A DNA stretch of 64,000 nucleotides from Escherichia phage vB_EcoM_phAPEC6. Shown here in pieces: positions 1 through 57,214 of this stretch (position 1 is its first letter; each line of letters opens with the position of its first letter). The notes under the pieces were generated by a model. The model was not told the origin of the DNA and ran no database searches. It saw nothing but the letters and a program-made list of their open reading frames with translations. The DNA lies in sequence record MK817115.1, one strand, 5' to 3'. The position numbers were made by a program, and so were the translations under genes.

Positions 1-2
1 TT

Positions 3-1145
3 ATGTTACCTTTTGCAAGAATGGTTAAGTACGGGAATATTGCACCTGCACAAATCGGTAGATATAAAATATACAGTTCATCTTCTTCACTATTTTTATT
101 GGATACCCAAAAACACAATTTGTACAGTACATCGAACATTAATTATACTAGTGGTACAGGTAATGTTGAGCCTAAATTTGTGTTAAGTGCAACTAATGTT
201 AAAAGATTATTACTATCTGATAATAGTTGTGCAATGCAAATATATGAAGATATGAATGGGCGTGCAGCGATGTGTGGCACAAGAACTGCATATAGTGGGG
301 TTGCAAATGATAATGTACTGGTATGGACGGATTGCACTACATGGTTCACAAATGTAGGGTTGAATGTATCAGATATTCAGTACATGTCTGGTTTTTATAA
401 TCTGAAACTAAACATAGTTATGAATAATGGTGATTTGTGGTGTAGTGGGAAAAACAACACTACTACTATGTCATCATTTGGTAATAGCACAAATATCGAT
501 TCATTCAATCAGTTTACCAAAATAACAACAATATCAAATGTTATTAAAGCCACCGGGAATATATACTTATGTGCAGATAATACTTTATGGGGATGTGGTT
601 TTAACTCTTACTATCAGTTAGGGACAGGTAATCAAACATCCAGTATTAATTTGATTATGATGGCTTCTAATGTTATCGACTGTAATGTTGGTCTTCAAAA
701 TACTTATTACTTGACTAATAATAAAGAACTTTATGGATGTGGTACACAATTTGGTACAACTTACGGGAATGAATTTGGAACAGGAAGGCAGGGAACATCA
801 ATACAATATAAGACTCCTACTATAATTTTCACAAATGCAGATGGTCTGGCTGTTTGTGTCGGTAATATGTCTACTCATGTTATTCAATATGATAAAGTTT
901 TTAGTTCTGGTAATAATGCCCTTGCACAGTTGGGTGTAGGCAACCGTGACAATGTGTACACATATACACAATCATTTGATAATTTCAAAATGGATTCTTC
1001 TATAGTACGTGCAAACGTTGGAACATTGATAATGACAGCGGACAATAAGTTATATTACAGTGGGAGAAATGATGTTGTTATGGGTGGAACAAGCACACAA
1101 TACACGACGGTTTTCAGTGAAGTTAATATGTCATTTATACAATGA
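3..1145 (+). CDS. Array member 1: RCC1-like beta-propeller repeat protein with conserved N-terminal leader MLPFARMVKYGN
   Basis: ATG at 3 followed by the shared leader; repeated GxNxxGQLGxG-type blades (LWGCGFNSYYQLGTGNQT, VFSSGNNALAQLGVGNRD); upstream cassette lies outside the window. Confidence 0.85.
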   Translation: MLPFARMVKYGNIAPAQIGRYKIYSSSSSLFLLDTQKHNLYSTSNINYTSGTGNVEPKFVLSATNVKRLLLSDNSCAMQIYEDMNGRAAMCGTRTAYSGVANDNVLVWTDCTTWFTNVGLNVSDIQYMSGFYNLKLNIVMNNGDLWCSGKNNTTTMSSFGNSTNIDSFNQFTKITTISNVIKATGNIYLCADNTLWGCGFNSYYQLGTGNQTSSINLIMMASNVIDCNVGLQNTYYLTNNKELYGCGTQFGTTYGNEFGTGRQGTSIQYKTPTIIFTNADGLAVCVGNMSTHVIQYDKVFSSGNNALAQLGVGNRDNVYTYTQSFDNFKMDSSIVRANVGTLIMTADNKLYYSGRNDVVMGGTSTQYTTVFSEVNMSFIQ

Positions 1146-1217
1146 ATTAATGCCAGTACTTGATACTGGCTTTTCTTTTTTGTATTAAATATAGTATAAT
1201 GAATAAAGGAGGGAATT
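1146..1217 (+). promoter_or_regulatory. Array cassette: terminator hairpin + promoter-like box + RBS
   Basis: Hairpin GCCAGTA-CTTGA-TACTGGC followed by a T-run; invariant GTATTAAATATAGTATAATGAATAA; AAGGAGGG 7-8 nt before ATG. Confidence 0.7.
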
Positions 1218-2360
1218 ATGTTACCTTTTGCAAGAATGGTTAAGTACGGAAATGAAGCACCAGAACCAAAACCTCTATTTAAAAATAGATTACAAGCAAA
1301 TTATAATACTCGTTTTTATTTGCATGTTAATGGTGACTTGTACTGGTATGGTTCATCTTCATTTGGACAAGGTGGTAATGGTTCATTACAATCATCCACC
1401 GTATGGACCCGTGTGAATAATAATATTGAACGTTACTGGGGTGGTGTTCTTGGTTCCATTGCCATTAAGAATGATGGAACTATTTGGTTCACAGGTGCTA
1501 GTATAGTAATGCCACAAATCGGAACAAATACAAATGGGGTTTGGATTGATGTAACCCAGTACTTCACTGATTTTGGTGTCAGTGCTGATGATATTGATGG
1601 TATTGCTGTTGGACAGAATTTGCGTGTATTTTTGAAAAATGGAAAATGGTTCTACTGTGGTGCTGGCGAGGGTGGTGTATTTGGTAACGCATCAACAGCT
1701 AATGTCACATCGTTCAGATACAGCACTATAGAAAATGTTAAAAGTTATGGCTGTTCTTTGCTCAGTACTGGGTTAGTTCTTGATGATGGTTCCTATTGGT
1801 ATGCAGGAAATACTGTTGCTCCTGGTAGTACAACAACATCAAATATATTAAGTTTTACAAAAGACAATACGATCACCAATGCTATACAAGCTGTAAATAC
1901 ATACCGTACTTCATATATATTTCTTAATGATGGTTCAGTGAAGGTTGCTTCACCAAATGCATATGGTCAAGCTGGTGTAGGTAGAGTATCAGCAGTACCA
2001 ATGAGTACATTAATTCCCAATTTATCATTCCAAGGTGAAATAGAGTTGGTGGGTGGTTTATCCAACAACGAAGGGAATGGATGTGTTGTTAAAAATAATA
2101 ATAAGTTATATACTTGTGGTCGAAATACCTATGGTGCATGTGGTGTTAATCAAACATCCGAAAATATACTAACTTTCACCGAAATGGTTCTTGATGCATT
2201 AGAAGGAAGACGAATTTCAGGCTTCGTAATTGATAATTTCTATTCAATGATAATTGATGAAAATAACAATTTGTATATGAGTGGTTTGGCTGAACTTGGA
2301 AATGTTCCAGCCGTGAGAGTTCCAACCAGAGTCCCCGATTCCCTTCTACCGTGGAAATAA
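1218..2360 (+). CDS. Array member 2: RCC1-like beta-propeller repeat protein with MLPFARMVKYGN leader
   Basis: Shared leader; blade motifs LYWYGSSSFGQGGNG, LYTCGRNTYGACGVN; own cassette upstream. Confidence 0.85.
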   Translation: MLPFARMVKYGNEAPEPKPLFKNRLQANYNTRFYLHVNGDLYWYGSSSFGQGGNGSLQSSTVWTRVNNNIERYWGGVLGSIAIKNDGTIWFTGASIVMPQIGTNTNGVWIDVTQYFTDFGVSADDIDGIAVGQNLRVFLKNGKWFYCGAGEGGVFGNASTANVTSFRYSTIENVKSYGCSLLSTGLVLDDGSYWYAGNTVAPGSTTTSNILSFTKDNTITNAIQAVNTYRTSYIFLNDGSVKVASPNAYGQAGVGRVSAVPMSTLIPNLSFQGEIELVGGLSNNEGNGCVVKNNNKLYTCGRNTYGACGVNQTSENILTFTEMVLDALEGRRISGFVIDNFYSMIIDENNNLYMSGLAELGNVPAVRVPTRVPDSLLPWK

Positions 2361-2433
2361 TGTAATATGCCAGTACTTGATGCTGGCTTTTCTTTTTTGT
2401 ATTAAATATAGTATAATGAATAAGGAGGGATTT
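2361..2433 (+). promoter_or_regulatory. Array cassette: terminator hairpin + promoter-like box + RBS
   Basis: Same hairpin, TATTAAATATAGTATAAT box and AAGGAGGG as other cassettes. Confidence 0.7.
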
Positions 2434-3543
2434 ATGTTACCTTTTGGAAGAATGGTTAAGTACGGAAATATTGTACCTGGTCCTAAAAATATAATTAAAG
2501 TTGGTGCTTCTACACAAGGTCAATTCTTATTGACTGATTCACATGATTTATATTACATAGGTAGAAATCAAGGTGGTGAATCTGGAAATGGTAATACCAA
2601 CACGGTATCTTCATGGATATTAGTAAGTGCAGATGTTTCTAATTTTTTCGTGGGTGATCGTACACTTGTTATTATTAAAAATGATAATACTATATGGACA
2701 TCAGGTCAAACGTACTGGTTCTCATCTTCTACGACTACTTCTTACAGTACTGTATTAGTTGAAAGGACTAATTGGTTTACTAATGCTATACCAGTCAGTG
2801 AAATTGCTAATATTGTATGTACAAATGGTTTAATATTTGTACTTAGCACTAATTCAGTACTCTATGGTGCAGGAGATAATGGATATCGTGGTTCTTTGGG
2901 TATTGGTTCATCATCAATTTATACATTAACTCAATGTGCTACGAACGTTCGTAAAGTAATGACCAATGCGAATGATAGTATGTATCTTACATTAGATAAT
3001 AAGCTATATAGTTCTGGATGGAATAGTAGTGGGCAGCATGGTACGGGGAACCAAACACAAATTAACACTTGGGGATTGCGTAGTTCTGGTGTAATCGATG
3101 CAGCCATTGGTGGTAATGCATTAAATTACTATAATGGTACATCATATTTCGTATGTGGTCAAACTCCAAACTTTCTTAGTTCAGGTACGACTACATTCCG
3201 TGCAGTTCCTGTAAGTACTTTGCCTAATAGTTCTCCGTTGTTTATGACGAATTCACCTGCATTAAATACTGCTACACAAATGGTAATTACTAGTACATAT
3301 CAAAAGGGTGTTGGGGCGAACCGTGGTTTGGGATTAAACAATTCTCAAACTGGTGCTATATATAGTGCTACCAATTTACAATTACCCGTTGAAGTTAGTG
3401 AGATTAGGGATGTTCTTTTTAGTGATGGTTTGACATCGATATTAACCAAAAATGGAGATGTGTATAGTACTGGATCGTATTACGCCATTCCAGGTGCAAT
3501 CGAGGATGTTGCAGTCTTTACTAAAATTGATTTACCAAAATAA
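2434..3543 (+). CDS. Array member 3: RCC1-like beta-propeller repeat protein with MLPFGRMVKYGN leader
   Basis: ORF-track start 2377 lies inside the cassette; ATG at 2434 is RBS-preceded and gives the shared leader; blades LYGAGDNGYRGSLGIG, LYSSGWNSSGQHGTGN. Confidence 0.85.
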   Translation: MLPFGRMVKYGNIVPGPKNIIKVGASTQGQFLLTDSHDLYYIGRNQGGESGNGNTNTVSSWILVSADVSNFFVGDRTLVIIKNDNTIWTSGQTYWFSSSTTTSYSTVLVERTNWFTNAIPVSEIANIVCTNGLIFVLSTNSVLYGAGDNGYRGSLGIGSSSIYTLTQCATNVRKVMTNANDSMYLTLDNKLYSSGWNSSGQHGTGNQTQINTWGLRSSGVIDAAIGGNALNYYNGTSYFVCGQTPNFLSSGTTTFRAVPVSTLPNSSPLFMTNSPALNTATQMVITSTYQKGVGANRGLGLNNSQTGAIYSATNLQLPVEVSEIRDVLFSDGLTSILTKNGDVYSTGSYYAIPGAIEDVAVFTKIDLPK

Positions 3544-3613
3544 CATAATGCCAGTGCTTGATACTAGCATTCTTATTTGTATTAAATATAGTATAATGAA
3601 TAAGGAGGGAAAT
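3544..3613 (+). promoter_or_regulatory. Array cassette: terminator hairpin + promoter-like box + RBS
   Basis: GCCAGTGCTTGATACTAGC hairpin, TATTAAATATAGTATAAT, AAGGAGGG. Confidence 0.7.
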
Positions 3614-4810
3614 ATGTTACCTTTTGGAAGAATGATTAAGTACGGGAATATTGCACCAGGGCCAAGTCCAGTGGCTTTCTCTGACGTTCTACAACAACAT
3701 TACACAAACTGTATGTATCTACATACACCAACTAATACTTTATATGGTTATGGTAATAATAATTTATGTCAATTAGGTGTTGGGAATCAATCTATAGTTT
3801 CGACATTTACAGTACTTGCAAGGGGTTGTGCAGCCTTTTGGCTCGGTGTTCATGGTTCATTGATGATTGATTTGGATAATAGAATATACTACACTGGTTC
3901 TGGTGCTGCCTTTCCTGATTATGGAGATGCAACACTTGTGAATGGTTTTATGACACAATGGACGGATGTTACTGTTGCATTTAATAAAATTGGTGTTATT
4001 GCTAATATGATCAAGAGTGTACATATAGGTGAGAGTACTAGAATATTATTAACCGATGGTAGAGTAATTGCGTGTGGAAAAAACACTTATGGTGAATGTG
4101 GTTCTGGGAACACAAATGCTATCCCTACACTAACAGTTATGACTGACATGGGTGAAGTTTCTCAACTCGCGTGTTCATTACAGGGTACACACTATCTCAA
4201 AACAAATAAAGACGCATGGTTTTGTGGTAAGGATAATGTTGGTGCAAGTGGTTGTGGTGCTGCTGGTGTTGTACATCTTAATAAACTCGTAACAAGTAAT
4301 GTCGAATATATTAGTGCTACATATGATATAACTTGGTGGTTTATTAGAGGTGGTTATGTATACTATAGTGGTTCTAACTCGTTTGCACAAGCGGGTAATG
4401 GTACATTTTCATCAACTAATCAGCTTAGGCCCACTAGAAACTTAGATCTTGCTTCAATTGTAGTTGATGATAATTTTGTATGTCCTAGTAATATGGGGAA
4501 TAGTTCAATTGGTACACCTATGGCAAAATATGATCCGAATATTAGAAGTGGTGGTGTTAACACATATGGTCAGGAAGGTACAGGAAATAATAATATAGTG
4601 ACGAAGTGGAATACCTTTAACATTAGTGCAATCACTGGAGGATTTGACAATATTCTTATGGCATCTAAAGACTGGTGTAGGACAATAATTATTACTAAAG
4701 ATTACAAAGTGTATGCGTGTGGAGGATTTAATGGTTCTGGTGGTATCTTACCAGATGGTACTTATGCTATTAAAACATTAACATTAATGCCAACACAACA
4801 ATGGCAATAA
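3614..4810 (+). CDS. Array member 4: RCC1-like beta-propeller repeat protein with MLPFGRMIKYGN leader
   Basis: ATG at 3614 after RBS; blades LYGYGNNNLCQLGVGN, VIACGKNTYGECGSGN; ORF-track start 3452 is an upstream extension through the cassette. Confidence 0.85.
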   Translation: MLPFGRMIKYGNIAPGPSPVAFSDVLQQHYTNCMYLHTPTNTLYGYGNNNLCQLGVGNQSIVSTFTVLARGCAAFWLGVHGSLMIDLDNRIYYTGSGAAFPDYGDATLVNGFMTQWTDVTVAFNKIGVIANMIKSVHIGESTRILLTDGRVIACGKNTYGECGSGNTNAIPTLTVMTDMGEVSQLACSLQGTHYLKTNKDAWFCGKDNVGASGCGAAGVVHLNKLVTSNVEYISATYDITWWFIRGGYVYYSGSNSFAQAGNGTFSSTNQLRPTRNLDLASIVVDDNFVCPSNMGNSSIGTPMAKYDPNIRSGGVNTYGQEGTGNNNIVTKWNTFNISAITGGFDNILMASKDWCRTIIITKDYKVYACGGFNGSGGILPDGTYAIKTLTLMPTQQWQ

Positions 4811-4822
4811 TAGGAGAAAATA

Positions 4823-5992
4823 ATGTTACCTTTTGGAAGAATGATTAAGTACGGAAATATTGCACCAACACCACCGAAATTTAAAAAAATACTCGCCAAT
4901 AACTACAACGTTGCAGTTTTAACAAGCAGTGGGGATTTATATGTACGTGGGAATAATCAAAACGGTCAATTGGGTTTAGGTCACAAAGAAACAGTTACTA
5001 CATGGACGATTAGCACTTCTGGTGTTCAAGATTTTTGGTTTGGTAGTTCATCACTAGTGGTTAAGAAAACCGATGATGAAATATGGTACAGTGGGCAGTC
5101 AACTACAATTGGTATGCCAGGGGCATCCGTGTCAGTGTGGACTTCTGCCATGCCGACATTCAATACATTAACATTACCAATATTAGATATGGCAGTTAGT
5201 AATCAGACTACAAGTGTATTACTATCTGACCGAACAATATGGAGTAGTGGGGTAGGAAGCAATGGTCAATTGGGTAATGGAACTGCGACGAACAACATTT
5301 CAGGTAAATTCGTCCAAAGTACTGTTTCAACAGAAGAAGATCAATTACCAGTTAAATTGTTTGCCAGTAATTTAATGCATGGATATGTTACGTCGAACGG
5401 CTGGTTATACTACACTGGGCAACCCAATGCAGTTAGCACTAATGGCAGTGCGATATATAGTGTTTATACTAGTGCTCCTATTAGTCTAAGGAATTCCATT
5501 AATATCAAGTACTATACAAATAATGGAACTTCGATGGCGATGGCTATTGGTACAGATCCAAATGGCAAGACCGTAATTGCTAATGGCGGCCCTAGGATAT
5601 TTGGTGCACAGGCTGATGGAGTAAATGGTCAACTAAGTAATGTTAGGTCATTTGCTGTTCAAACCGAATCACTAATGCCACCAGGTGATGTAGTAAGTAT
5701 TGCTCATAATACTTCATATTATAACCAAGTTATTGCTACAACAGATGGTATATATTGTTGCGGCTACAACCGATCTACACAAGCTGGTATGTTAGGCATT
5801 GGTACATCTACTAACGCATTAGTATATACCAAAGCAATCGTACCTGATGGTTTTGATTATAGTAAATCGCAAATGGTAGGTGGGTATAACCGTACTTATA
5901 TAACTGATGGTAATTTTGTATATAGTGCTGGGACAGATGTCACATATGGTGGCGTTAGTAGCTTAGAATTTGTATTAGATTCACCAGTTTAA
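4823..5992 (+). CDS. Array member 5: RCC1-like beta-propeller repeat protein with MLPFGRMIKYGN leader; directly coupled to member 4
   Basis: Only 12 nt (TAATAGGAGAAAATA) separate it from member 4, no cassette; blades LYVRGNNQNGQLGLGH, IWSSGVGSNGQLGNGT. Confidence 0.85.
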   Translation: MLPFGRMIKYGNIAPTPPKFKKILANNYNVAVLTSSGDLYVRGNNQNGQLGLGHKETVTTWTISTSGVQDFWFGSSSLVVKKTDDEIWYSGQSTTIGMPGASVSVWTSAMPTFNTLTLPILDMAVSNQTTSVLLSDRTIWSSGVGSNGQLGNGTATNNISGKFVQSTVSTEEDQLPVKLFASNLMHGYVTSNGWLYYTGQPNAVSTNGSAIYSVYTSAPISLRNSINIKYYTNNGTSMAMAIGTDPNGKTVIANGGPRIFGAQADGVNGQLSNVRSFAVQTESLMPPGDVVSIAHNTSYYNQVIATTDGIYCCGYNRSTQAGMLGIGTSTNALVYTKAIVPDGFDYSKSQMVGGYNRTYITDGNFVYSAGTDVTYGGVSSLEFVLDSPV

Positions 5993-6062
5993 ATATATGC
6001 CAGTACTTGATACTGGCATTCTTATTTGTATTAAATATAGTATAATGAATAAGGAGGGAATT
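5993..6062 (+). promoter_or_regulatory. Array cassette: terminator hairpin + promoter-like box + RBS
   Basis: GCCAGTACTTGATACTGGC hairpin, TATTAAATATAGTATAAT, AAGGAGGG. Confidence 0.7.
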
Positions 6063-7253
6063 ATGTTACCTTTTGCAAGAATGATGAATTATGGGAATAT
6101 TGTGCCTGTACCACTACAAATTAAGAAAATAATACCAACTGATACTGATGTTGTTGTACTTTATACTGATGGTCAACTATACGCACGAGGCAGTAATAGT
6201 TTTGGGAAGTTTGGTAGAGGAAATAATAATGCAGTAAGGTCGTGGACATTAATTAGAGAAAATGTCAAAGATTGCTGGATGACACAAGGAACTTTGTTAG
6301 TTCAAGATAAGGACTTAAATTATTTTTATTGTGGATATGGTAGTCATATTGGTTTAGAAACTAGTACTACATCATTTTTAAGTTATAACCAATATATTGA
6401 AAATTTGTACACACAAAGTTCAAGTACTTCAATTAAACAGATGTATGCAGGTACTACGTGGTTTACTTTCTTAATGGATAATAATACAATATGGAGTACA
6501 GGGTGGAATAGTGCTAGACAATTCGCAGATGGTACAGGAACTACTTATCAAATATCAGATGGTTCATTTGTTAAAGCGGTAACACCAGATGTAGATATTG
6601 CACAAATACAGTCAACAAATTACTGTGTAATGTTTTTTGATACACAAAATAATTTATATATTGGTGGTAGTACATCTGGCATAAGTACTAGTACCACATG
6701 GACACCATTTAATGAATATACTTTGTATAAGCCAAGTACCACATATACAAAAACATTACAATATACTGGTTGTTCAATTGGTGCTGTCAGTGCTTTAGTA
6801 GAGAATCCAAGTACAGGAGCACGTCAGTTCCTAGTAGGTGGTAACGCTAATAATGGGGCATGGGGTAATAACACTACGAATAGTACAGCACTAGCAGTAT
6901 TAGGGAATAATAGTACTACATTACCATCAGGAACTTATTATTCAATCCATACTGGATATGCAGCACAATCTAGTATACTAGTTACGAGTACAGGTGTATA
7001 TGCAACTGGTTTAAATGCGAGTGGTTATGCTGGTACATTAGGTGTTGGTTCTAATGTTACTATTGGTAGATTTACTATATGTCCAATGCCAGCAGAAATA
7101 TCATATTCTATGTATGATAAAATAAAAATATATCGCGGTTCGTATCGTACTTTTCTAACTGCTGATATGAAAAATATATATTCAACCGGAACGTATGATG
7201 ATGGTGGACCTAGTACAAATAGATATGTTCTGGATACACCTAGACAATTGTAA
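6063..7253 (+). CDS. Array member 6: RCC1-like beta-propeller repeat protein with MLPFARMMNYGN leader
   Basis: ATG at 6063 after RBS; blades LYARGSNSFGKFGRGN, VYATGLNASGYAGTLGVG. Confidence 0.8.
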   Translation: MLPFARMMNYGNIVPVPLQIKKIIPTDTDVVVLYTDGQLYARGSNSFGKFGRGNNNAVRSWTLIRENVKDCWMTQGTLLVQDKDLNYFYCGYGSHIGLETSTTSFLSYNQYIENLYTQSSSTSIKQMYAGTTWFTFLMDNNTIWSTGWNSARQFADGTGTTYQISDGSFVKAVTPDVDIAQIQSTNYCVMFFDTQNNLYIGGSTSGISTSTTWTPFNEYTLYKPSTTYTKTLQYTGCSIGAVSALVENPSTGARQFLVGGNANNGAWGNNTTNSTALAVLGNNSTTLPSGTYYSIHTGYAAQSSILVTSTGVYATGLNASGYAGTLGVGSNVTIGRFTICPMPAEISYSMYDKIKIYRGSYRTFLTADMKNIYSTGTYDDGGPSTNRYVLDTPRQL

Positions 7254-7324
7254 TAATTTCGCCAGTACAAAGTACTGGCTTTCTTATTTGTATTAAATAT
7301 AGTATAATGAATAAAGGAGGAAGT
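7254..7324 (+). promoter_or_regulatory. Array cassette: terminator hairpin + promoter-like box + RBS
   Basis: GCCAGTAC-AAA-GTACTGGC hairpin, TATTAAATATAGTATAAT, AAAGGAGG. Confidence 0.7.
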
Positions 7325-8059
7325 ATGTTACCTTTTGGAAGAATGGTAAAGTACGGGAATAAAATTGAATATAAGCCAGATGGTGAACAATTAATCACGA
7401 CAATAGGAACAACACAATTTACAGTTCCTGCTGGCGTTACCGAAATATCAGTATGTGTTATTTCGCCGGGTGGTCAACGTGGTGCTGGTGGCGGCTTATC
7501 GTGGCGTAATAATATTCCGGTTACTAGTGGTGAGTACTTAAGTGTTTCTCTTACACATCCCAACACTACTACAGCAGTTGAAAACGGTTTATATCGTGGA
7601 ACTGAAAAACTATGTGTTAGCTTCACTGGTGAATATAGGGTTGGTGGACTAGGTGGGAAAGCTGCTAACGCTATTAATGATGGTGGTGGTAATGGGGGCA
7701 ACGCTGGTGTAAGTGGTGGTGCAGTCATTGGTGGTGGTGCTGGTGGCTACACTGGTAAAGGTGGTAACGGAGATGCAATCACTGGTGAAAATGGTGCTGG
7801 CGGCGGCGGTGGTGGTGCATTCTATAATACCTCGTTCATTGGTACGGGTGGTGGTACTGGTATCATTGTTCAAGGTGCTAATGGTATTGGCGGTAGATAC
7901 GATGGTTCATATAATGGTGGTGCTGGTAGTGGTGGTGCTGGTAAGATGTATGGTGGTGGTGGTAGTATATGGGATAATTTTTCTTATACGGCTGCTGGTG
8001 GTGGTGCTGTGCGAATAATATGGGGACGTGGGAGATATTATCCTAACAATTCAGTCTAA
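7325..8059 (+). CDS. Array member 7: glycine-rich low-complexity protein carrying the same MLPFGRMVKYGN leader
   Basis: ATG at 7325 after RBS; leader identical to neighbours; body is Gly-rich (GGGAGGYTGKGGNGD, GAGGGGGGAF) with no RCC1 blades. Confidence 0.75.
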   Translation: MLPFGRMVKYGNKIEYKPDGEQLITTIGTTQFTVPAGVTEISVCVISPGGQRGAGGGLSWRNNIPVTSGEYLSVSLTHPNTTTAVENGLYRGTEKLCVSFTGEYRVGGLGGKAANAINDGGGNGGNAGVSGGAVIGGGAGGYTGKGGNGDAITGENGAGGGGGGAFYNTSFIGTGGGTGIIVQGANGIGGRYDGSYNGGAGSGGAGKMYGGGGSIWDNFSYTAAGGGAVRIIWGRGRYYPNNSV

Positions 8060-8131
8060 AATATAGGCCAGTACTTTGTACTGGCTTTCTTATTTGTATT
8101 AAATATAGTATAATGAATAAGGAGGGGAATT
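8060..8131 (+). promoter_or_regulatory. Array cassette: terminator hairpin + promoter-like box + RBS
   Basis: GCCAGTAC-TTT-GTACTGGC hairpin, TATTAAATATAGTATAAT, AAGGAGGG. Confidence 0.7.
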
Positions 8132-9283
8132 ATGTTACCTTTTGGAAGAATGGTTAAGTACGGGAATATTGCACCAGTTCCAGTAGTTCCTACAATAAAA
8201 GATTTTAAGATTGGCTTTTCACATGAAGTGTTATTGGACAGTGAAGGTGATGTGTGGGGTATTGGATATAATACCGCTGGTCAGTTGGGATTTCTGGACG
8301 CTAACACAAATTCAATAGGAATGTGGTCTAAGATACATGAGAATGTTAGATTAATTGGCGTTACTACCAATTATACTGTAGTTGTTACAAATGATAATAG
8401 AATACTTTACGCCGGAAATAACTTAATTTCTAGTACTACAACGCTTGGGTGGAACGATATAACGTCTAGTATGGGAGCGGTTGTAGTGGATAGCATCGAT
8501 GCATTATATTGCACAGATGGCATGATGCATATTAAAACTGCTGATGGTTCTTTATACGCATATGGACGTAATATGAACGCAAACGCTGGAGTTACTGGTG
8601 TTTCTGGAGTTATTAGTGTTGCAACTAAAGTTAGTGGTTTACCATCGGCTGTGAAAGATATACGATATACGTTTAGTTATGGTACAGTACTATGTCAATT
8701 AGATACCACCTCGGTATATGGATGGGGAAGAAATGTCAATGGTGAATTAGGTCAGGGGAACGCAGCCGCAGTTCCTACCCCATCCCAAAGGGCGGGTGCT
8801 TCTATTGCTATAGGTACTTCGTATAATGCTACTGCAATTGTTTCCGGTACTGCATCGTTGGTTACATGTGGTGGACAAAATGATGGTCAGTTAGGTAATG
8901 GTATTACTACTGCTGGTAATGTATACACATATGGTGCTAGAGCATACCCAAGCGATCTTAATAATATAAGAAGTCCAGTGGATTGCAGTACAACTTATAC
9001 ATCTGCATTTATGAGTCCAGATGGCATATATTACACGGGTTCGAACCGAAGTGTGTTTGGTGGTCCGAGCGGGGCTGCCACTGTTGCATTATATACCAAA
9101 TGTAGTGATTTACCAATATTATATTCTAATATAACACAGTGGTGTAGTGGTACTATTGGTGGTGCGATATGTAGCAGTACTGAATTATATCAGTGTGGGA
9201 CCGGTAGATACATTGCCGGAGATGGGCAGAACGCAACTAGGTATGGGTTTAGAAAGACACCATTACCTTGGGATGTTTATTGA
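8132..9283 (+). CDS. Array member 8: RCC1-like beta-propeller repeat protein with MLPFGRMVKYGN leader
   Basis: Blades VWGIGYNTAGQLGF, VYGWGRNVNGELGQGN, VTCGGQNDGQLGNG. Confidence 0.85.
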   Translation: MLPFGRMVKYGNIAPVPVVPTIKDFKIGFSHEVLLDSEGDVWGIGYNTAGQLGFLDANTNSIGMWSKIHENVRLIGVTTNYTVVVTNDNRILYAGNNLISSTTTLGWNDITSSMGAVVVDSIDALYCTDGMMHIKTADGSLYAYGRNMNANAGVTGVSGVISVATKVSGLPSAVKDIRYTFSYGTVLCQLDTTSVYGWGRNVNGELGQGNAAAVPTPSQRAGASIAIGTSYNATAIVSGTASLVTCGGQNDGQLGNGITTAGNVYTYGARAYPSDLNNIRSPVDCSTTYTSAFMSPDGIYYTGSNRSVFGGPSGAATVALYTKCSDLPILYSNITQWCSGTIGGAICSSTELYQCGTGRYIAGDGQNATRYGFRKTPLPWDVY

Positions 9284-9355
9284 CATAAAGCCAGTACTCA
9301 AGTACTGGCATTTCTTTTTGTATTAAATATAGTATAATGAATAAAGGAGGAATTT
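9284..9355 (+). promoter_or_regulatory. Array cassette: terminator hairpin + promoter-like box + RBS
   Basis: GCCAGTACTCAAGTACTGGC hairpin, TATTAAATATAGTATAAT, AAAGGAGG. Confidence 0.7.
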
Positions 9356-39616: not shown

Positions 39617-39847
39617 TTACATTATTCCTTCTATGCAACAACCAAGAATTACTTTTTTAACTTCAACAACTCGTACCAAATAGAATCCATTTGAAAAGTT
39701 AAAACTATACATTTGTACTAAGGCATCTGCTTCAGATTTCGCACGGATACATGATAGATAAATTTCACGTATATCACCATCTAACGATACTTGTTTCTCT
39801 GCATCGATGACAATAGAACGAATCTCAAAACGAACACCATAACTCAT
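39617..39847 (-). CDS. Hypothetical small protein
   Basis: 76-aa ORF. Confidence 0.5.
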   Translation of the reverse strand: MSYGVRFEIRSIVIDAEKQVSLDGDIREIYLSCIRAKSEADALVQMYSFNFSNGFYLVRVVEVKKVILGCCIEGIM

Positions 39848-40053
39848 TGAGTTTGTCCTACAATAAGCTTTGTGTTAGTATTACTATTGTAACACCACAT
39901 TTGTTCTTTATTAACTGTAATCCAAATATCTTTGTTTACTTGTTCGTATGTACTATCACGTACTGCTATGCATTGATTCATGGAATTCATTGGGGTTATT
40001 TGTATACCGGAATTAACAGAGAAAGCGACTACTAAAAAGATTACTGAATTCAT
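39844..40053 (-). CDS. Secreted small protein (signal peptide)
   Basis: MNSVIFLVVAFSVNSG N-terminus; TTGACA-N17-TAGAAT promoter at ~40095-40125 upstream. Confidence 0.5.
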   Translation of the reverse strand: MNSVIFLVVAFSVNSGIQITPMNSMNQCIAVRDSTYEQVNKDIWITVNKEQMWCYNSNTNTKLIVGQTQ

Positions 40054-40670
40054 TGGATATTCCTTAATGGTTAATCATCCATCTCTTCGAGATGTCTGTT
40101 CGCTTCTAATACTACGTATTCTACGCGAATGATTAATAACTGTCAAGGACTTTTAATATTGACGGGATTTGAGGAAGGGATTTTTCTTCCCCCCACAAGG
40201 AGGGAAATTTGACGCTGATGGTATCAGAGCTATTGCATTGAAGATTACTCATAACGAGTGCGAAAGCGGGTCATCCTGTTTCTCTCTACTTCAGTTTCAT
40301 ATGACGGTCTACACTTTTAAACATAGTGTATCTTCATTAAGTATCTATGCAATCAAATACTTAATGTGAGTACTCAAATTTTGGACGCAACTTTCCTGTA
40401 CAAAATTCGATAACTCTCCCTTAGATAATTCGTAAGGTGTTATCCTTATATGTCTATCAAGGAACCACCAGCTATCCTAACGTGGTTCTTTATACAGCCG
40501 CATTGCCGTGAGGGGTTCAAACTATGCCCACATCTAACGGGTTTCTTTTGCTGTTCGCACTGTCGGACTGCTCAACTGCCCTCTACGTTTTCGAGTGGAT
40601 CAGGTACATGAATATCATGCCAACAGAATTGTACAAGATAATTATATCACAAACTTTTACTTCATCCCAT

Positions 40671-40700
40671 AAAAAAAGGTTGGCATAAGCCAACCCTTGT
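40671..40700 (-). terminator. Intrinsic terminator after the sigma-factor gene
   Basis: Minus strand: GGGTTGGC-TTAT-GCCAACC followed by TTTTTTT. Confidence 0.65.
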
Positions 40701-40703
40701 TCT

Positions 40704-41669
40704 TTAGAAATCTTCGTATTCGTACCCTTTTGCAAGTACTAACTTCTTAAGCTTTTGCATAGCTTCACTGTACTTTCGGTGTATTGATGAACGGGATTTA
40801 ACATATTTTCCATTATCATCAACAAAACCATTATCAGCAATCTCACGAAGCGTTTCAGGTTCATATTCACCTAGACCATGAACACGCTGGATAATCTCAC
40901 GTTCTTTAGTACTCAATTCGTTAGTTAGTTCATTGATAGCATAACGTAAAGGTGCACGGATACTATCAACATTGAGGTTAAAATCAGAAGCAGGTGAATG
41001 AATAATGTCACCTAATGTACCATCTGTAACACCGTCTAATGGTGCATCCAGTGAAGTGTATTCGCTTTGAAATAATAAACAATTATTAACATGCTGAATC
41101 TCAATCCCAGTACCCTCTGAGATTATTTCAGGTGTTGGGCGAACACCATGTTTACGCATATATTCCTGGCAGAATCTTTTTACTTTGATCTTATGAACAC
41201 TCATATAACGTGGGAAGTGTACCATATAGTTAGCGTCAGAACTTTCGTTATAAACTGTCATGTAAATACTAGAAGAAGCATAGGTAATGAACTTCACATT
41301 CTTATTAAGATCAAAGGTTTTTAGTGCTCTCATGAACCCCTCAACACCATATGAAATCTTATCTTCAAATGGGATATAACAAGTACATTTACTTGCTACA
41401 TCAATAATAAGTCCATAATTGTAACGAACTAACAGTTCAGTGTTTTTCTTTACATTGATACCAGCTTGAATATCACGAATTAGATCTTCATTGGAAACAT
41501 TTGGTGGTCGCTTAAGTGTAATATTATATTTGAAACTGCTTTGTACTTTACCTTCATTTTCATCTTTATCTTCAACGAAATCTAAGGCTTCTAGTGTGTT
41601 GACTTCTTCATTAGCAAAACATTCATCCAGAACTTCTTCGGCAATTGTATTTAAATCAAGCTTTTTCAC
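40704..41669 (-). CDS. Sigma-70 family RNA polymerase sigma factor
   Basis: Region-2-like LLVRYNYGLIIDVASK ... GVEGFMRALKTFDLNKNVKFITYASSSIY and a region-4-like C-terminus (EREIIQRVHGL ... TLREIADNG). Confidence 0.6.
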   Translation of the reverse strand: MKKLDLNTIAEEVLDECFANEEVNTLEALDFVEDKDENEGKVQSSFKYNITLKRPPNVSNEDLIRDIQAGINVKKNTELLVRYNYGLIIDVASKCTCYIPFEDKISYGVEGFMRALKTFDLNKNVKFITYASSSIYMTVYNESSDANYMVHFPRYMSVHKIKVKRFCQEYMRKHGVRPTPEIISEGTGIEIQHVNNCLLFQSEYTSLDAPLDGVTDGTLGDIIHSPASDFNLNVDSIRAPLRYAINELTNELSTKEREIIQRVHGLGEYEPETLREIADNGFVDDNGKYVKSRSSIHRKYSEAMQKLKKLVLAKGYEYEDF

Positions 41670-52939: not shown

Positions 52940-53029
<90 letters not shown>

Positions 53030-53041
53030 AGAAGTAAGATA

Positions 53042-53142
<101 letters not shown>

Positions 53143-53194
53143 GCCAAGAGTCGGCATAGGTGCAGCACTACAAAGTTCTTCAAGCTGCTTGGTA

Positions 53195-53226
<32 letters not shown>

Positions 53227-53227
53227 T

Positions 53228-53284
<57 letters not shown>

Positions 53285-53286
53285 TA

Positions 53287-53414
<128 letters not shown>

Positions 53415-53433
53415 GCATACTCGAAGTACCTCT

Positions 53434-53471
<38 letters not shown>

Positions 53472-53472
53472 A

Positions 53473-53837
<365 letters not shown>

Positions 53838-53846
53838 TAATACCCG

Positions 53847-54248
53847 CTAGTAGTTTAAGTCTGCGGCGTTGAATACACCAAGTGAAGTCTTACCACGTAG
53901 TTTAGGTGAAAGGACATACTTTGTCAATTTCTTTTTACCGTACCAGCGATTGAATTCGTCTTCAGTGACATATGGGTTCTGGAAATCGTATTCGCGTTTC
54001 TTATGCAGTTCTTTAGCACGTTCTGCAATCTTGGTTCGTTGGTCTTCTGGAATGTCGAATGTATTGTTACGTTCACACCATTCGTGCTCTAATGCACCCT
54101 GAAGAAACTGTTCGGTTTCTTTGACTAGAGTGATTTTAGTCAAGCCTTTTTCGATGTTCATATAATCATCGACGTATCCATTCCAAATAACAATCTCTGG
54201 ATTGCCGTCAATTTCTTGAAGCATTTTGATCAAGTCATTCTTTTTCAT
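53847..54248 (-). CDS. Hypothetical protein
   Basis: 133-aa ORF. Confidence 0.55.
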   Translation of the reverse strand: MKKNDLIKMLQEIDGNPEIVIWNGYVDDYMNIEKGLTKITLVKETEQFLQGALEHEWCERNNTFDIPEDQRTKIAERAKELHKKREYDFQNPYVTEDEFNRWYGKKKLTKYVLSPKLRGKTSLGVFNAADLNY

Positions 54249-54256
54249 TTAAATTC

Positions 54257-54514
<258 letters not shown>

Positions 54515-54535
54515 TTATACCTCTCATTGTTTATG

Positions 54536-54607
<72 letters not shown>

Positions 54608-54611
54608 TAAT

Positions 54612-55219
<608 letters not shown>

Positions 55220-55270
55220 ATAAACCTCACTATACGTAACTTACACCATATACGTCTGATTGTGGAATTC

Positions 55271-55295
55271 ATTATATCAGTACTGAACTATTTAG

Positions 55296-55299
<4 letters not shown>
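55271..55299 (-). promoter_or_regulatory. Sigma70-like early promoter with CAGTACTG spacer
   Basis: Minus strand: TTGACT-aaatagttCAGTACTGa-TATAAT; 25-nt core repeated at 54816, 55277 and 55687. Confidence 0.6.
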
Positions 55300-55709
<410 letters not shown>

Positions 55710-55718
55710 CTTTTTTTT

Positions 55719-55880
<162 letters not shown>

Positions 55881-55884
<4 letters not shown>

Positions 55885-56045
55885 AATCGTACCAGTAGTT
55901 CAATTAAGTACATTTCATATGCTGGATCGTTGATAAGTTTATCATACAGATGTGGCTCTGAAATGAATTCCCAATGATACTTTAGCCATCTACCGATACC
56001 CGAATATCTAAAATTAATGTCATTCATCCATTCTTCATGTGTCAT
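55881..56045 (-). CDS. MTHEEW-family small protein, copy 2 (54 aa; not in ORF track)
   Basis: MTHEEWMNDINFRYSGIGRWLKYHWEF...; tandem repeat unit ~162 bp; start overlaps stop of copy 3. Confidence 0.5.
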
Positions 56046-56206
56046 AATCGTACCATTATTTCAATAAAGAACCACGGATACACTTCATGATTCATAAGTT
56101 TATCGTATTCTGCTGGGTCTGATATGATTTCCCAATGATACTTTAGCCAACTACCGATACCCGAATATCTAAAATTAATGTCATTCATCCATTCTTCATG
56201 CGTCAT
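56042..56206 (-). CDS. MTHEEW-family small protein, copy 3 (54 aa; not in ORF track)
   Basis: MTHEEWMNDINFRYSGIGSWLKYHWEI...; near-identical to copy 2. Confidence 0.5.
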   Translation of the reverse strand: MTHEEWMNDINFRYSGIGSWLKYHWEIISDPAEYDKLMNHEVYPWFFIEIMVRL

Positions 56207-56229
56207 GGTTTTTAACCTTTAATTAAAAT

Positions 56230-56306
56230 TGGCCGAGGTAGAGGGACTTGAACCCCCAACCTAGAGATTAGAATTCTCTTGCACTATCCAATTGTGCTAT
56301 ACCCCG
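56230..56306 (-). tRNA. tRNA-Arg (anticodon UCU), CCA encoded
   Basis: D-arm GCAC..GTGC, anticodon stem-loop AGAGA-AUUCUAA-UCUCU, T-arm GGGGG-TTCAAGT-CCCTC, 3' GCCA. Confidence 0.75.
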
Positions 56307-56310
56307 TATT

Positions 56311-56426
<116 letters not shown>

Positions 56427-56459
56427 ATGTTATGTCCCATTATATAATGAATTAATGAT

Positions 56460-56678
56460 TTATGCAAGTGCTTTAGATACACCGACACCAATAATTCCAG
56501 TGATATCGATATGGATATTGGCAAGTTGATTACTATCATATGGGTTTGTTTCTGTAATAACCAATGTTGTATCATTGACTAAAACCACAGTACCTTTTAC
56601 ACGATAACCATGTAGTAGTACTTGAACCTCATCTTCAGGTTTTAATGATTGAATAACTTCAAATAAAGTTGTTTCCAT
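56460..56678 (-). CDS. Hypothetical small protein
   Basis: Start set to ATG 56678 (AAGGAA RBS; METTLFEV...); the longer ORF-track form overlaps the neighbour by 92 nt. Confidence 0.45.
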   Translation of the reverse strand: METTLFEVIQSLKPEDEVQVLLHGYRVKGTVVLVNDTTLVITETNPYDSNQLANIHIDITGIIGVGVSKALA

Positions 56679-56694
56679 TTTTTGTATTCCTTGT

Positions 56695-56877
56695 TTAGTT
56701 TTGATTATTTGACTTTCTAAATGCCAGTTCGCATATAAACCAGGGTTTTCTGGTATCCAAAACATATGACCTGAAAAGATTTTCATCTCTTAATATATCA
56801 TAATGTACCTGACGAATGCCATTCCCAAAGCAGTCATGTTCTTTATGCTGTTTGGACATCCATTCTTCGTGTGTCAT
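56695..56877 (-). CDS. MTHEEW-family small protein, copy 4
   Basis: ATG at 56877 gives MTHEEWMSKQHKEHDCFGNGIRQVHYDIL...; the ORF-track start at 56895 appears to be a TTG codon. Confidence 0.55.
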   Translation of the reverse strand: MTHEEWMSKQHKEHDCFGNGIRQVHYDILRDENLFRSYVLDTRKPWFICELAFRKSNNQN

Positions 56878-56878
56878 T

Positions 56879-57214
<336 letters not shown>

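Follow-up and report, generated by a model that had tools for sequence, protein, structure and literature searches.

A probable structured-RNA gene of a new family in Rak2-like jumbo phages and bacterial genomic islands

Results

A gene-free gap downstream of a sigma-factor gene

We analysed a stretch of 64,000 nucleotides (nt) from Escherichia phage vB_EcoM_phAPEC6 (MK817115.1). This whole stretch is referred to as the window. Positions 40054–40703 form a gap of 650 bases, bounded by the stop codon of a sigma-factor gene and the start of an open reading frame (ORF) of 69 amino acids (aa). Both are on the minus strand. A gene for an HNH endonuclease lies beyond the ORF, farther downstream. The window is of the Asteriusvirus (121Q/PBECO4) type. 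At 99–100% identity, the gap and its flanks match about 20 genomes of this group (E. coli jumbo phages 121Q, PBECO4, G17, Sharanji and their relatives). A sequence-only reading of the window had proposed a structured non-coding RNA at this locus. Covariation in two domains, and the lack of a coding signal, agree with that proposal. The gap very probably contains a structured-RNA gene of a new family, read from the minus strand of the window.

The same reading described the gap as less AT-rich than its surroundings. Indeed, the GC content is 0.38–0.41, compared with 0.33–0.36 in the flanks. The gap was also described as the longest non-coding interval in its block. This holds for the minus-strand block (no minus-strand ORF of at least 60 aa) but two gaps bearing transfer RNA (tRNA) genes are exceptions. 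The ORF called at 40169–40369 on the plus strand was dismissed as spurious, and it matched no PHROG family. Nor did the ORFs at 40450–40611 and 40524–40688 (plus strand) or 40583–40735 and 40133–40252 (minus strand). Across 44 homologous copies of the element, the longest stop-free stretch had a median length of 76 aa, compared with 66 in shuffled sequences (95th percentile 95). There was no 3-base periodicity across these copies and no ORF was conserved. Detection of a bona fide protein-coding gene would have spoken against an RNA; by PHROG matching, ORF conservation and periodicity, such a gene is not detectable in the gap. GenBank records OR699282, PQ390715, PP886230 and PQ330092, and those of Salmonella phages with names beginning SD-, place three to four 'hypothetical protein' coding sequences over the RNA gene. 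These are almost certainly spurious calls. In the UE-S1 record, a 'repeat_region' is annotated at the gap.

The minus strand has a covarying, pseudoknotted fold

Helices were identified using column-pair statistics for 44 copies less than 93% identical. Pairs were then counted in independent MAFFT alignments. Alignment A1 contains 28 copies of the 3′ domain and alignment A2 contains 20 copies of the 5′ domain. RNAalifold, applied to the full gappy alignment, gave a rough structure only. Over the 44 diverse copies, the fold comprises about 80 base pairs (bp) in 14 helices, including three pseudoknots, with 96–97% canonical pairing.

For the 3′ domain, we counted 40 pairs, two pseudoknots included. 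In alignment A1, 96.0% of cells were paired, compared with 76.5% after shuffling, and none of 500 shuffles attained the observed pairing. Compensatory cells numbered 225 (58 in shuffles) and 31 of the 40 pairs varied on both sides. The covariation score was 0.586. Controls with a shifted register scored 0.07–0.11 and were 37–46% paired. For the 5′ domain, 39 pairs were counted, including one pseudoknot. Here, 96.7% of cells were paired (78.7% shuffled, with 0 of 500 shuffles attaining this level) and there were 121 compensatory cells, compared with 33 in shuffles. The covariation score of 0.470 again exceeded that of shifted-register controls (0.02–0.08, at 31–47% pairing). Hence, the compensatory changes that the sequence-only reading had looked to related phages for are present in both domains. 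The region is conserved in jumbo phages of at least nine host genera.

Clean helices contain frequent G-U pairs and no A-C pairs. For instance, pair 96–118 of alignment A1 is G-U in 21 of the 28 copies. Hence, the selected strand is the minus strand of the window. About 100 nt of unpaired sequence are invariant among copies that are about 70% identical overall, with long invariant stretches between the helices. In the 121Q copies, perfectly conserved blocks alternate with hairpins of variable length that bear compensatory changes. We conclude that covariation shows strong selection on the RNA-sense strand for a predicted, elaborate two-domain fold.

This evidence is comparative and is therefore not visible from the window alone. 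The several stable hairpins noted earlier do not stand out: the minimum free energy z-score is −1.4 for the minus strand and −1.2 for the plus strand, which is not above chance for a single sequence. Of the two hairpins given as examples, GGTTGGCATAAGCCAACC (40678–40695) is the intrinsic terminator of the sigma gene, on the minus strand with a T-run after it. The other, GGAAGGGATTTTTCTTCC (40174–40191), overlaps the 3′ arm of the conserved C/G hairpin, but its pairing is not conserved in other copies. The sequence-only reading did not give the strand, the 3–5 paralogs per genome, the RNA gene's own promoter or the copies on bacterial chromosomes.

Several copies occur in every Rak2-like jumbo phage

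No second copy was found within the window. Using sensitive BLAST, the element was detected at 3–5 places per genome in all Rak2-like jumbo phages. The 121Q genome contains four copies, at ~90.2, 192.8, 247.5 and 326.6 kb. These are ~70–80% identical over matching blocks and all are on the strand corresponding to the window's minus strand. Related genera (GAP32, CBB, BF, Yen9-04, RaK2 and others) have 3–5 copies at syntenic positions, and Klebsiella phage RaK2 has a diverged full copy. Scans of IMG/VR with two patterns gave 56 matches. Of these, 51 are unique full-length copies, on contigs of ~350–380 kb, with at most five copies per genome in GAP32, CBB, BF and fHe-Yen9-04. A fixed-spacing pattern gave no matches in IMG/VR because spacing varies. 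In metagenomes, one degenerate core pattern (fewer than one false match expected) identified ~80 more copies, whole or partial. The jumbo phages of this group infect E. coli, Klebsiella, Salmonella, Cronobacter, Erwinia, Serratia, Yersinia and Pectobacterium.

The copies fall into five paralog types. One is between the endonuclease VII and baseplate-hub genes. This type is antisense to both neighbours and so is not the leader of a downstream gene. A second is between gene 415 and genes 416 and 417, the last encoding a DNA methyltransferase. A third is between a structural gene and a Dps-like gene. The window's copy belongs to the type found downstream of the sigma-factor gene. The fifth type is not in 121Q. 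Since paralog positions are constant across genera, the duplications must predate the genera. Genes for HNH endonucleases are near two of the four 121Q copies.

Architecture of the element

The features of the window's copy are listed in Table 1. The sigma gene terminator is the upstream boundary and is outside the RNA. The sigma-70 promoter of the 69-aa ORF is the downstream boundary. In other genera, homologous promoters (TTGACT-17-TAnnnT) follow the copies of this paralog type.

Table 1. Features of the RNA gene and its surroundings in the window
Feature	Position	Strand	Remarks
Sigma-factor gene	40704–41669	−	PHROG 351
Intrinsic terminator of sigma gene	40671–40698	−	AAGGGTTGGCttatGCCAACCTTT then TTTTT; terminator scan; annotated terminator in phages G17 and UE-S1
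Predicted RNA-gene promoter	40641–40670	−	Predicted start near 40634
Box at −35 position, ATGGGATGAAG	40660–40670	−	Non-canonical
Extended −10, TGTGATATAAT	40641–40651	−	Promoter of RNA gene
RNA body, ~430 nt	~40634–40209	−	Ends in CGUCAA
RNA body and 3′ hairpin extension, ~480 nt	~40634–40159	−	
5′ domain	40416–40634	−	Column-pair analysis; pair count on alignment A2
P1 5′ strand, CUGUUGG	40620–40626	−	Pairs with P1b loop
Hairpin Pb	40579–40598	−	Conserved loop GAAAAYGUA, invariant
Hairpin P1b	40557–40571	−	Loop in pseudoknot 1
Helices B and C enclosing hairpin Pc	40494–40554	−	Three-helix stack around CACGGCAAUGCGGC
Hairpin D	40462–40488	−	
Conserved block GAUAGACAUA	5′ domain, listed between hairpins D and E	−	
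Hairpin E	40433–40448	−	
Conserved block CUAAGGGAG	40416–40424	−	
Variable hairpin F	40368–40416	−	Alignments
3′ domain	40209–40366	−	Pair count on alignment A1
Hairpin G	40335–40366	−	Loop AUUGCAU
Hairpin I	40309–40332	−	
Core pseudoknot 3	Within 40239–40305	−	Helices g (GUCAU/AUGAC), h (UGAAG/CUUCA) and i (GAGAG/CUUUC)
Hairpin J	40246–40261	−	
Pseudoknot 2	Hairpin G loop with 40232–40238	−	AUUGCAU with AUGCAAU
3′ segment	40209–40227	−	Ends in first CGUCAA
3′ extension	40159–40207	−	Present in all copies
C/U-rich versus G-rich hairpin	40183–40207	−	UUUCCCUCC uugu GGGGGGAAGAAA
Second CGUCAA motif, CAAAUCCCGUCAA	40159–40171	−	
Sigma-70 promoter for ORF 39844–40053	40118–40146	−	TTGACA-17 nt-TAGAAT; scan, 11 of 12 consensus matches
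69-aa ORF	39844–40053	−	Downstream neighbour of gap

Nearly every full-length copy examined, bacterial copies included, is preceded by a TG(A/G)(A/G)AC(A/G) box, a 17-nt spacer and TGnTATAAT. In an alignment of the 121Q copies, each begins with TG(A/G)GACA, 17 nt and TGnTATAAT. The box matches the 'TGAAACG plus −10' promoter class. This class was described for phages CBB and GAP32, where it is mostly ahead of DNA-synthesis genes (PMC5259590). The RNA promoter was missed by a generic sigma-70 scan because the −35 box is non-canonical.

Pseudoknot 1 of the 5′ domain joins the 5′ strand (CUGAUUGA) to the loop of a hairpin farther downstream. The blocks GAUAGACAUAUAAGG and CUAAGGGAG are flanked by hairpins D and E. 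Hairpin F of the window's copy is an optional module, consisting of a stem capped by the conserved loop GUACAnnAnAGnUnCGUCC. Some other copies do not have the module, or have it in hairpin J too. A conserved loop of ~17 nt, UACAAUAUAGAUCCGUC, flanked by AAAUUU/AAAUUU, occurs at 40380–40403 in the window and in the F and J hairpins of other copies (L025, L057, L091 and others). This stem-loop, present at either or both of two positions in the RNA, behaves like a portable unit for tertiary contacts or protein binding.

In the 3′ domain, the partner strand of pseudoknot 2 is 160 nt 3′ of the hairpin G loop. The 7 bp of this pseudoknot are 99.5–100% paired, and six of the seven vary on both sides. 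In pseudoknot 3, helix g is interleaved with helices h and i around GACCGU...GAGAGAAACAG...ACCCGCUUUCG.

Beyond the RNA body, the G-run of the C/G hairpin is invariant. Changes from C to U in the 5′ arm retain C-G or U-G pairs. Three of the five paralog types have an intrinsic terminator directly past the first CGUCAR and ahead of the C/G hairpin; the window's type has none. The two CGUCAR motifs around the hairpin (40209–40214 and 40159–40164 in the window) are of matching variant within most copies. The counts are 31 for CGTCAA/CGTCAA, 25 for CGTCAG/CGTCAG, seven for mixed pairs, three for TGTCAG/TGTCAA and two for CTTCAA/CTTCAA, the CTTCAA variant being that of RaK2. A shared recognition partner could account for the matching, or simply kinship of the copies.

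A further conserved module is found in most copies, those in bacteria included, 30–170 nt downstream of the second CGUCAR (L019, L024, L029, L054, L066, L086 and others). The order is GAATTGAGTT, a hairpin with the loop ACGAAGTG (sometimes ACGTCAGTG), AACGAAAATTCTTTGAC, a 5-bp hairpin and GGCAAAT. In RNA letters, this reads GAAUUGAGUU ... ACGAAGUG ... UUGAC-hairpin-GGCAAAU. The 5-bp hairpin has compensatory changes (CATTC/GAATG, CAATC/GATTG, CTAAC/GTTAG, CTTGC/GCAAG and CTCGC/GCGAG). The window's copy is without the module, save for CCTTGAC at ~40141–40148. In the window's paralog type, a perfect sigma-70 promoter (TTGACT-17-TAnnnT) is at the position of the module. The module may act as RNA, may belong to an origin or may be a promoter in which the spacer is structured.

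The element is also found on bacterial genomic islands

The degenerate core pattern identified eight loci in bacterial genome assemblies (L086–L093). In a few Enterobacterales (Buttiauxella, Silvania, Enterobacter chinensis and others), the full-length unit is on a chromosomal island, next to a large integrase of the serine or tyrosine type and a cI-like HTH-S24 repressor. Most often, the integrase comes first, then the RNA and then the repressor gene, which is convergent. In Serratia fonticola, the neighbours are two ParB/RepB-like genes, and the copy is at the border of an island next to rof and tilS. Among 5,426 complete E. coli genomes, only two have the element. In E. coli LR-29-1, the copy (L174) is at ~3,479,260–3,479,900 of NZ_AP027515.1. 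The E. coli island that carries the element is 10 kb long, is located between ffs and ybaA and includes the candidate defence system PDC-M45 (DuOB, DUF488, DUF4326). Islands bearing the RNA may be satellites of jumbo phages, or defences against them. A query of the bacterial type, compared with 50,697 phage records, matched Rak2-like jumbo phages only. No plasmid in PLSDB carries the element.

The RNA matches no known family

We define the family by the TG(A/G)(A/G)AC box with an extended −10, the P1 pseudoknot, the GAAAAYGUA loop, CACGGCAAUGCGGC, GAUAGA and AAGGGAG. In the 3′ part, the family has the GACCGU...GAAAC.G....ACCCGC core pseudoknot and the order CGUCAR, C/G hairpin, CGUCAR. The window's copy has every one of these blocks and, being equivalent to locus L014, aligns with the family profile over its full length (nhmmer E = 4e-100).

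A search with Rfam covariance models had been suggested as a check. Using all 4227 models of Rfam 15 at gathering thresholds, only tRNAs were found in the whole window. At E ≤ 10, matches in region 39800–41000 were at chance level (20 bits or less) and mostly involved the terminator hairpin. RNAI (RF00106) had no match in that region. Five bacterial loci had no match at E ≤ 1. Hence, the check returned no known family for the RNA, in either phage or bacterial copies. ARAGORN identified seven tRNAs elsewhere in the window and no transfer-messenger RNA (tmRNA); there were none in the bacterial loci. These results speak against membership of the group I intron, ribonuclease (RNase) P, tmRNA, GOLLD, ROOL, OLE, HEARO and CRISPR-repeat families.

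The RNA family appears to be undescribed. We found no description of it in the literature searched. A large survey of phage csRNAs lists 8,495 unnamed candidates of 29–151 nt, among which there could be fragments of the RNA (PMC10690425).

Other features of the window

Window positions ~1–14600 form a plus-strand block, opposite in orientation to the neighbouring genes and equivalent to 117–131 kb of 121Q. In 121Q, the counterpart is a tandem array of ~15 paralogous RCC1-like genes ('regulator of chromosome condensation'). Seven tRNA genes are clustered on the minus strand at 52950–57192, 12 kb from the RNA gene. Three of the tRNAs are unusually long (87–92 nt) and class-II-like: Met-CAT and Ser-ACT, as called by ARAGORN, and Ser-TGA. 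At one of these positions, the 121Q annotation has tRNA-Leu(taa) instead. In 121Q (NC_025447.1), ~2 kb at 135194–137161 are without an annotated coding sequence and follow an array of ~17 very small genes (~60 aa). This stretch has no similarity to the RNA family.

Discussion

A folded RNA that may act in trans

We narrowly favour the view that the gap encodes a structured RNA of a new family that acts in trans. Briefly, host RNA polymerase would transcribe the RNA from the predicted extended −10 promoter. Expression would be early to middle in infection, since the −35 box is of the TGAAACG class that is also ahead of DNA-synthesis genes. The stable product would work in trans as a folded RNA. 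The compact pseudoknotted core, with its invariant nucleotides, may be a binding site or scaffold for a conserved factor of the phage or the host, or may catalyse a reaction. Peripheral hairpins would be free to vary. We prefer action in trans because the invariant unpaired sequence and three pseudoknots look like the cores of ribonucleoproteins or ribozymes. In addition, most paralog types end in a terminator, as ordinary RNA genes do. Taken by itself, the choice of action in trans over action in cis at the DNA is at best evenly balanced.

Several observations weigh against a trans-acting RNA. In the 121Q genome, antisense targets of the four 121Q RNAs were sought and only chance-level matches were found. 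No consistently adjacent partner protein was found. Neither was a protein common to the island and phage contexts; cross-matches involved only spurious ORFs that cross the RNA itself and a DUF4326 protein that is unrelated. Conservation runs beyond the terminator to the C/G hairpin, the second CGUCAR and, in most other copies, the further module. A trans-acting RNA gene of a simple kind would not predict this. A role in cis, at the level of DNA, accounts at least as well for copies that are dispersed, co-oriented and constant in position. Finally, the Pseudomonas jumbo phage PA5oct produces four abundant ORF-less transcripts, ncRNA001–004, of 236–619 nt (PMC7318152). These resemble our RNA in being ORF-less non-coding RNAs from a jumbo phage related to the Rak2/121Q clade. 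Using nhmmer at maximum sensitivity, ncRNA001 and ncRNA002 had no similarity to the family profile.

Alternative explanations

The main rival is an RNA-primed replication origin, which has a real, if minor, chance of being correct. Each copy would be an origin of the 350-kb genome and the structured transcript would be a pre-primer of the ColE1 RNA II or T4 oriF and oriG type. A persistent RNA-DNA hybrid would form near the invariant G-run and CGTCAR motifs. Once processed, this would prime leading-strand synthesis. Islands would carry the element so that the replisome of an infecting phage copies them. The four to five dispersed, co-oriented and position-conserved copies are better explained by this model. 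GC skew around the four copies in 121Q tracks the orientation of genes, gives no signal and is uninformative. T4 origins use middle promoters, and the promoter here is of a class that precedes DNA-synthesis genes, which this model also explains better. ColE1 RNA II is ~550 nt and the RNA is near this size. However, ~80 covarying pairs, three pseudoknots and ~100 invariant nucleotides are more than any known primer RNA requires. The invariant G6 run is on the non-template strand, but an intrinsic terminator separates it from the RNA body in three of the five paralog types. Conservation that reaches flanking DNA beyond the terminators, where a CGTCAG/ACGAAGTG-like motif recurs three times and there is an AT-rich spacer, is likewise better explained by an origin. 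Conversely, T4 origins share no sequence, so the model does not require a conserved origin sequence. The islands have the element without obvious replication genes, and once beside ParB/RepB-like genes, which also fits an origin better; its absence from PLSDB plasmids does not fit. In keeping with an origin, 121Q encodes RNase H and a UvsW-like helicase.

A giant cis-regulatory leader is improbable. On sensing a signal, the folded body would control whether transcription passes the terminator and continues through the downstream hairpin or module to the next gene. Consistent with this, the terminator is directly past the body in many copies, and conservation then extends as far as the next gene's start codon. 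Moreover, the hairpin beyond the terminator has U-G wobble covariation, which implies a role for read-through transcripts. The leader is nonetheless unlikely because the endonuclease VII/baseplate-hub paralog type has no downstream gene in the same orientation in any genus. Downstream genes are also unrelated between paralog types, bacterial copies face a convergent repressor gene and the next ORF in the window has a separate sigma-70 promoter.

A decoy against host defence is very improbable. Either the 3′ C/G hairpin would imitate a type I-E CRISPR repeat, as an RNA anti-CRISPR, or the whole RNA would mimic the target of a host nuclease. By eye, the hairpin has UUCCCC, GGGGAU and AA in common with the I-E repeat of enterobacteria, GUGUUCCCCGCGCCAGCGGGGAUAAACCG. 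The likeness goes no further than UUCCCC...GGGGAU.AA; stem and loop are different, the left arm drifts freely between C and U and no CRISPR-DR family of Rfam was matched at E ≤ 10. Host genera commonly carry type I-E systems and, in E. coli, the element is also within a defence-type island. The 430-nt body is left unexplained.

The least probable explanation is that there is no RNA gene, only protein genes that are very small or in decay, or else a DNA repeat with hairpins that act in DNA (a miniature mobile element or protein-binding array), as the 'hypothetical protein' and UE-S1 'repeat_region' annotations and the HNH endonuclease genes near two 121Q copies might suggest; this disagrees with the lack of a conserved ORF, codon periodicity or family match, with long-range pseudoknots and one-strand G-U wobble not expected of double-stranded DNA sites, with fixed syntenic positions instead of variable insertion sites, and with the lack of visible terminal repeats.

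Implications

On balance, we lean towards a new class of large pseudoknotted RNA, possibly catalytic or self-assembling. It would be a core component of Rak2-like jumbo phages, with 3–5 specialised paralogs, and would have been captured by, or donated from, host islands. If so, giant phages and host mobile elements may interact at the RNA level. For example, a satellite may mimic the origin, or a decoy version may serve as a defence. If the origin model is instead correct, these are the first replication origins identified for this phage group. To our knowledge, few RNA classes of at least 400 nt with complex, conserved tertiary-type architecture are known. So far as is known, all have proved to be central ribonucleoproteins or ribozymes, or else have puzzled the field for years (such as OLE, GOLLD and ROOL). 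The family is universal in a well-sampled group of jumbo phages that are therapeutic candidates, with several anciently diverged copies, and is common to host islands. Host phages grow on E. coli K-12, which makes the RNA directly testable. Genome annotations can also be corrected by removing the spurious 'hypothetical proteins'.

Comparison with known RNAs

Group I introns, RNase P RNA and tmRNA are of similar size (350–450 nt) and are pseudoknotted. In contrast, our RNA interrupts no gene, has its own promoter and terminator and gave no match at E ≤ 10. The core, in which helix g interleaves the h/i stack and is followed by hairpin J, has a topology loosely reminiscent of P3-P7-P8 in group I introns. 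A group I intron was rejected: the element is intergenic with its own predicted promoter, RF00028 was not matched and the space between helices g and h, where P4-P6 is expected, is only ~10 nt. By eye, the short strings ACAGAGCAACCCGCUUUCG and ACAGAACCCGGCUUAUCG resemble conserved regions I and V of RNase P RNA. Both contain ACCCG and so cannot pair with each other. Hence, they are not mutually complementary, as helix P4 requires, and no RNase P model of Rfam was matched. A tmRNA or other tRNA-like RNA was rejected because ARAGORN found no tmRNA in the window or bacterial loci. A hammerhead-like string, CAGAUGAG...CGAAG, was also rejected. The U4 and A6 positions are not conserved, the nucleotides are paired in helix Pb and there is no Rfam match.

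Like ColE1 RNA II and the transcripts of T4 oriF and oriG, our RNA is a promoter-driven transcript of ~500 nt (here predicted), with folding that may matter and a G-rich segment near the 3′ end. T4-type origins also combine a middle-class promoter with downstream sequence, several per genome, and the 121Q group has T4-like replication genes. However, no sequence similarity was observed to ColE1 RNA II or T4 origins, and no plasmid carrier. T4 origins differ further in not being homologous to one another. Compared with ColE1 RNA II, our RNA is far more elaborate and conserved, and terminators are upstream of the G-run in most paralog types.

In general character, our RNA resembles GOLLD and ROOL, and also OLE and raiA. 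Like these large 'ornate' RNAs of bacteria and phages, it is highly conserved, multi-helix and pseudoknotted and is carried by phages and mobile elements, with its own transcription unit (here predicted). No covariance model for GOLLD, ROOL, OLE, HEARO or raiA was matched. Our RNA is shorter than GOLLD and ROOL (~430–480 nt) and is from jumbo phages of Enterobacterales, whereas GOLLD and ROOL are from Firmicutes or rumen sources. It also differs in having 3–5 diverged paralogs per genome, at fixed positions away from the tRNA cluster. GOLLD and ROOL form homo-oligomeric assemblies (PMC12286853). By analogy, the loop-strand pairings of P1 and hairpin G could in principle be intermolecular, as in the GOLLD and ROOL oligomers.

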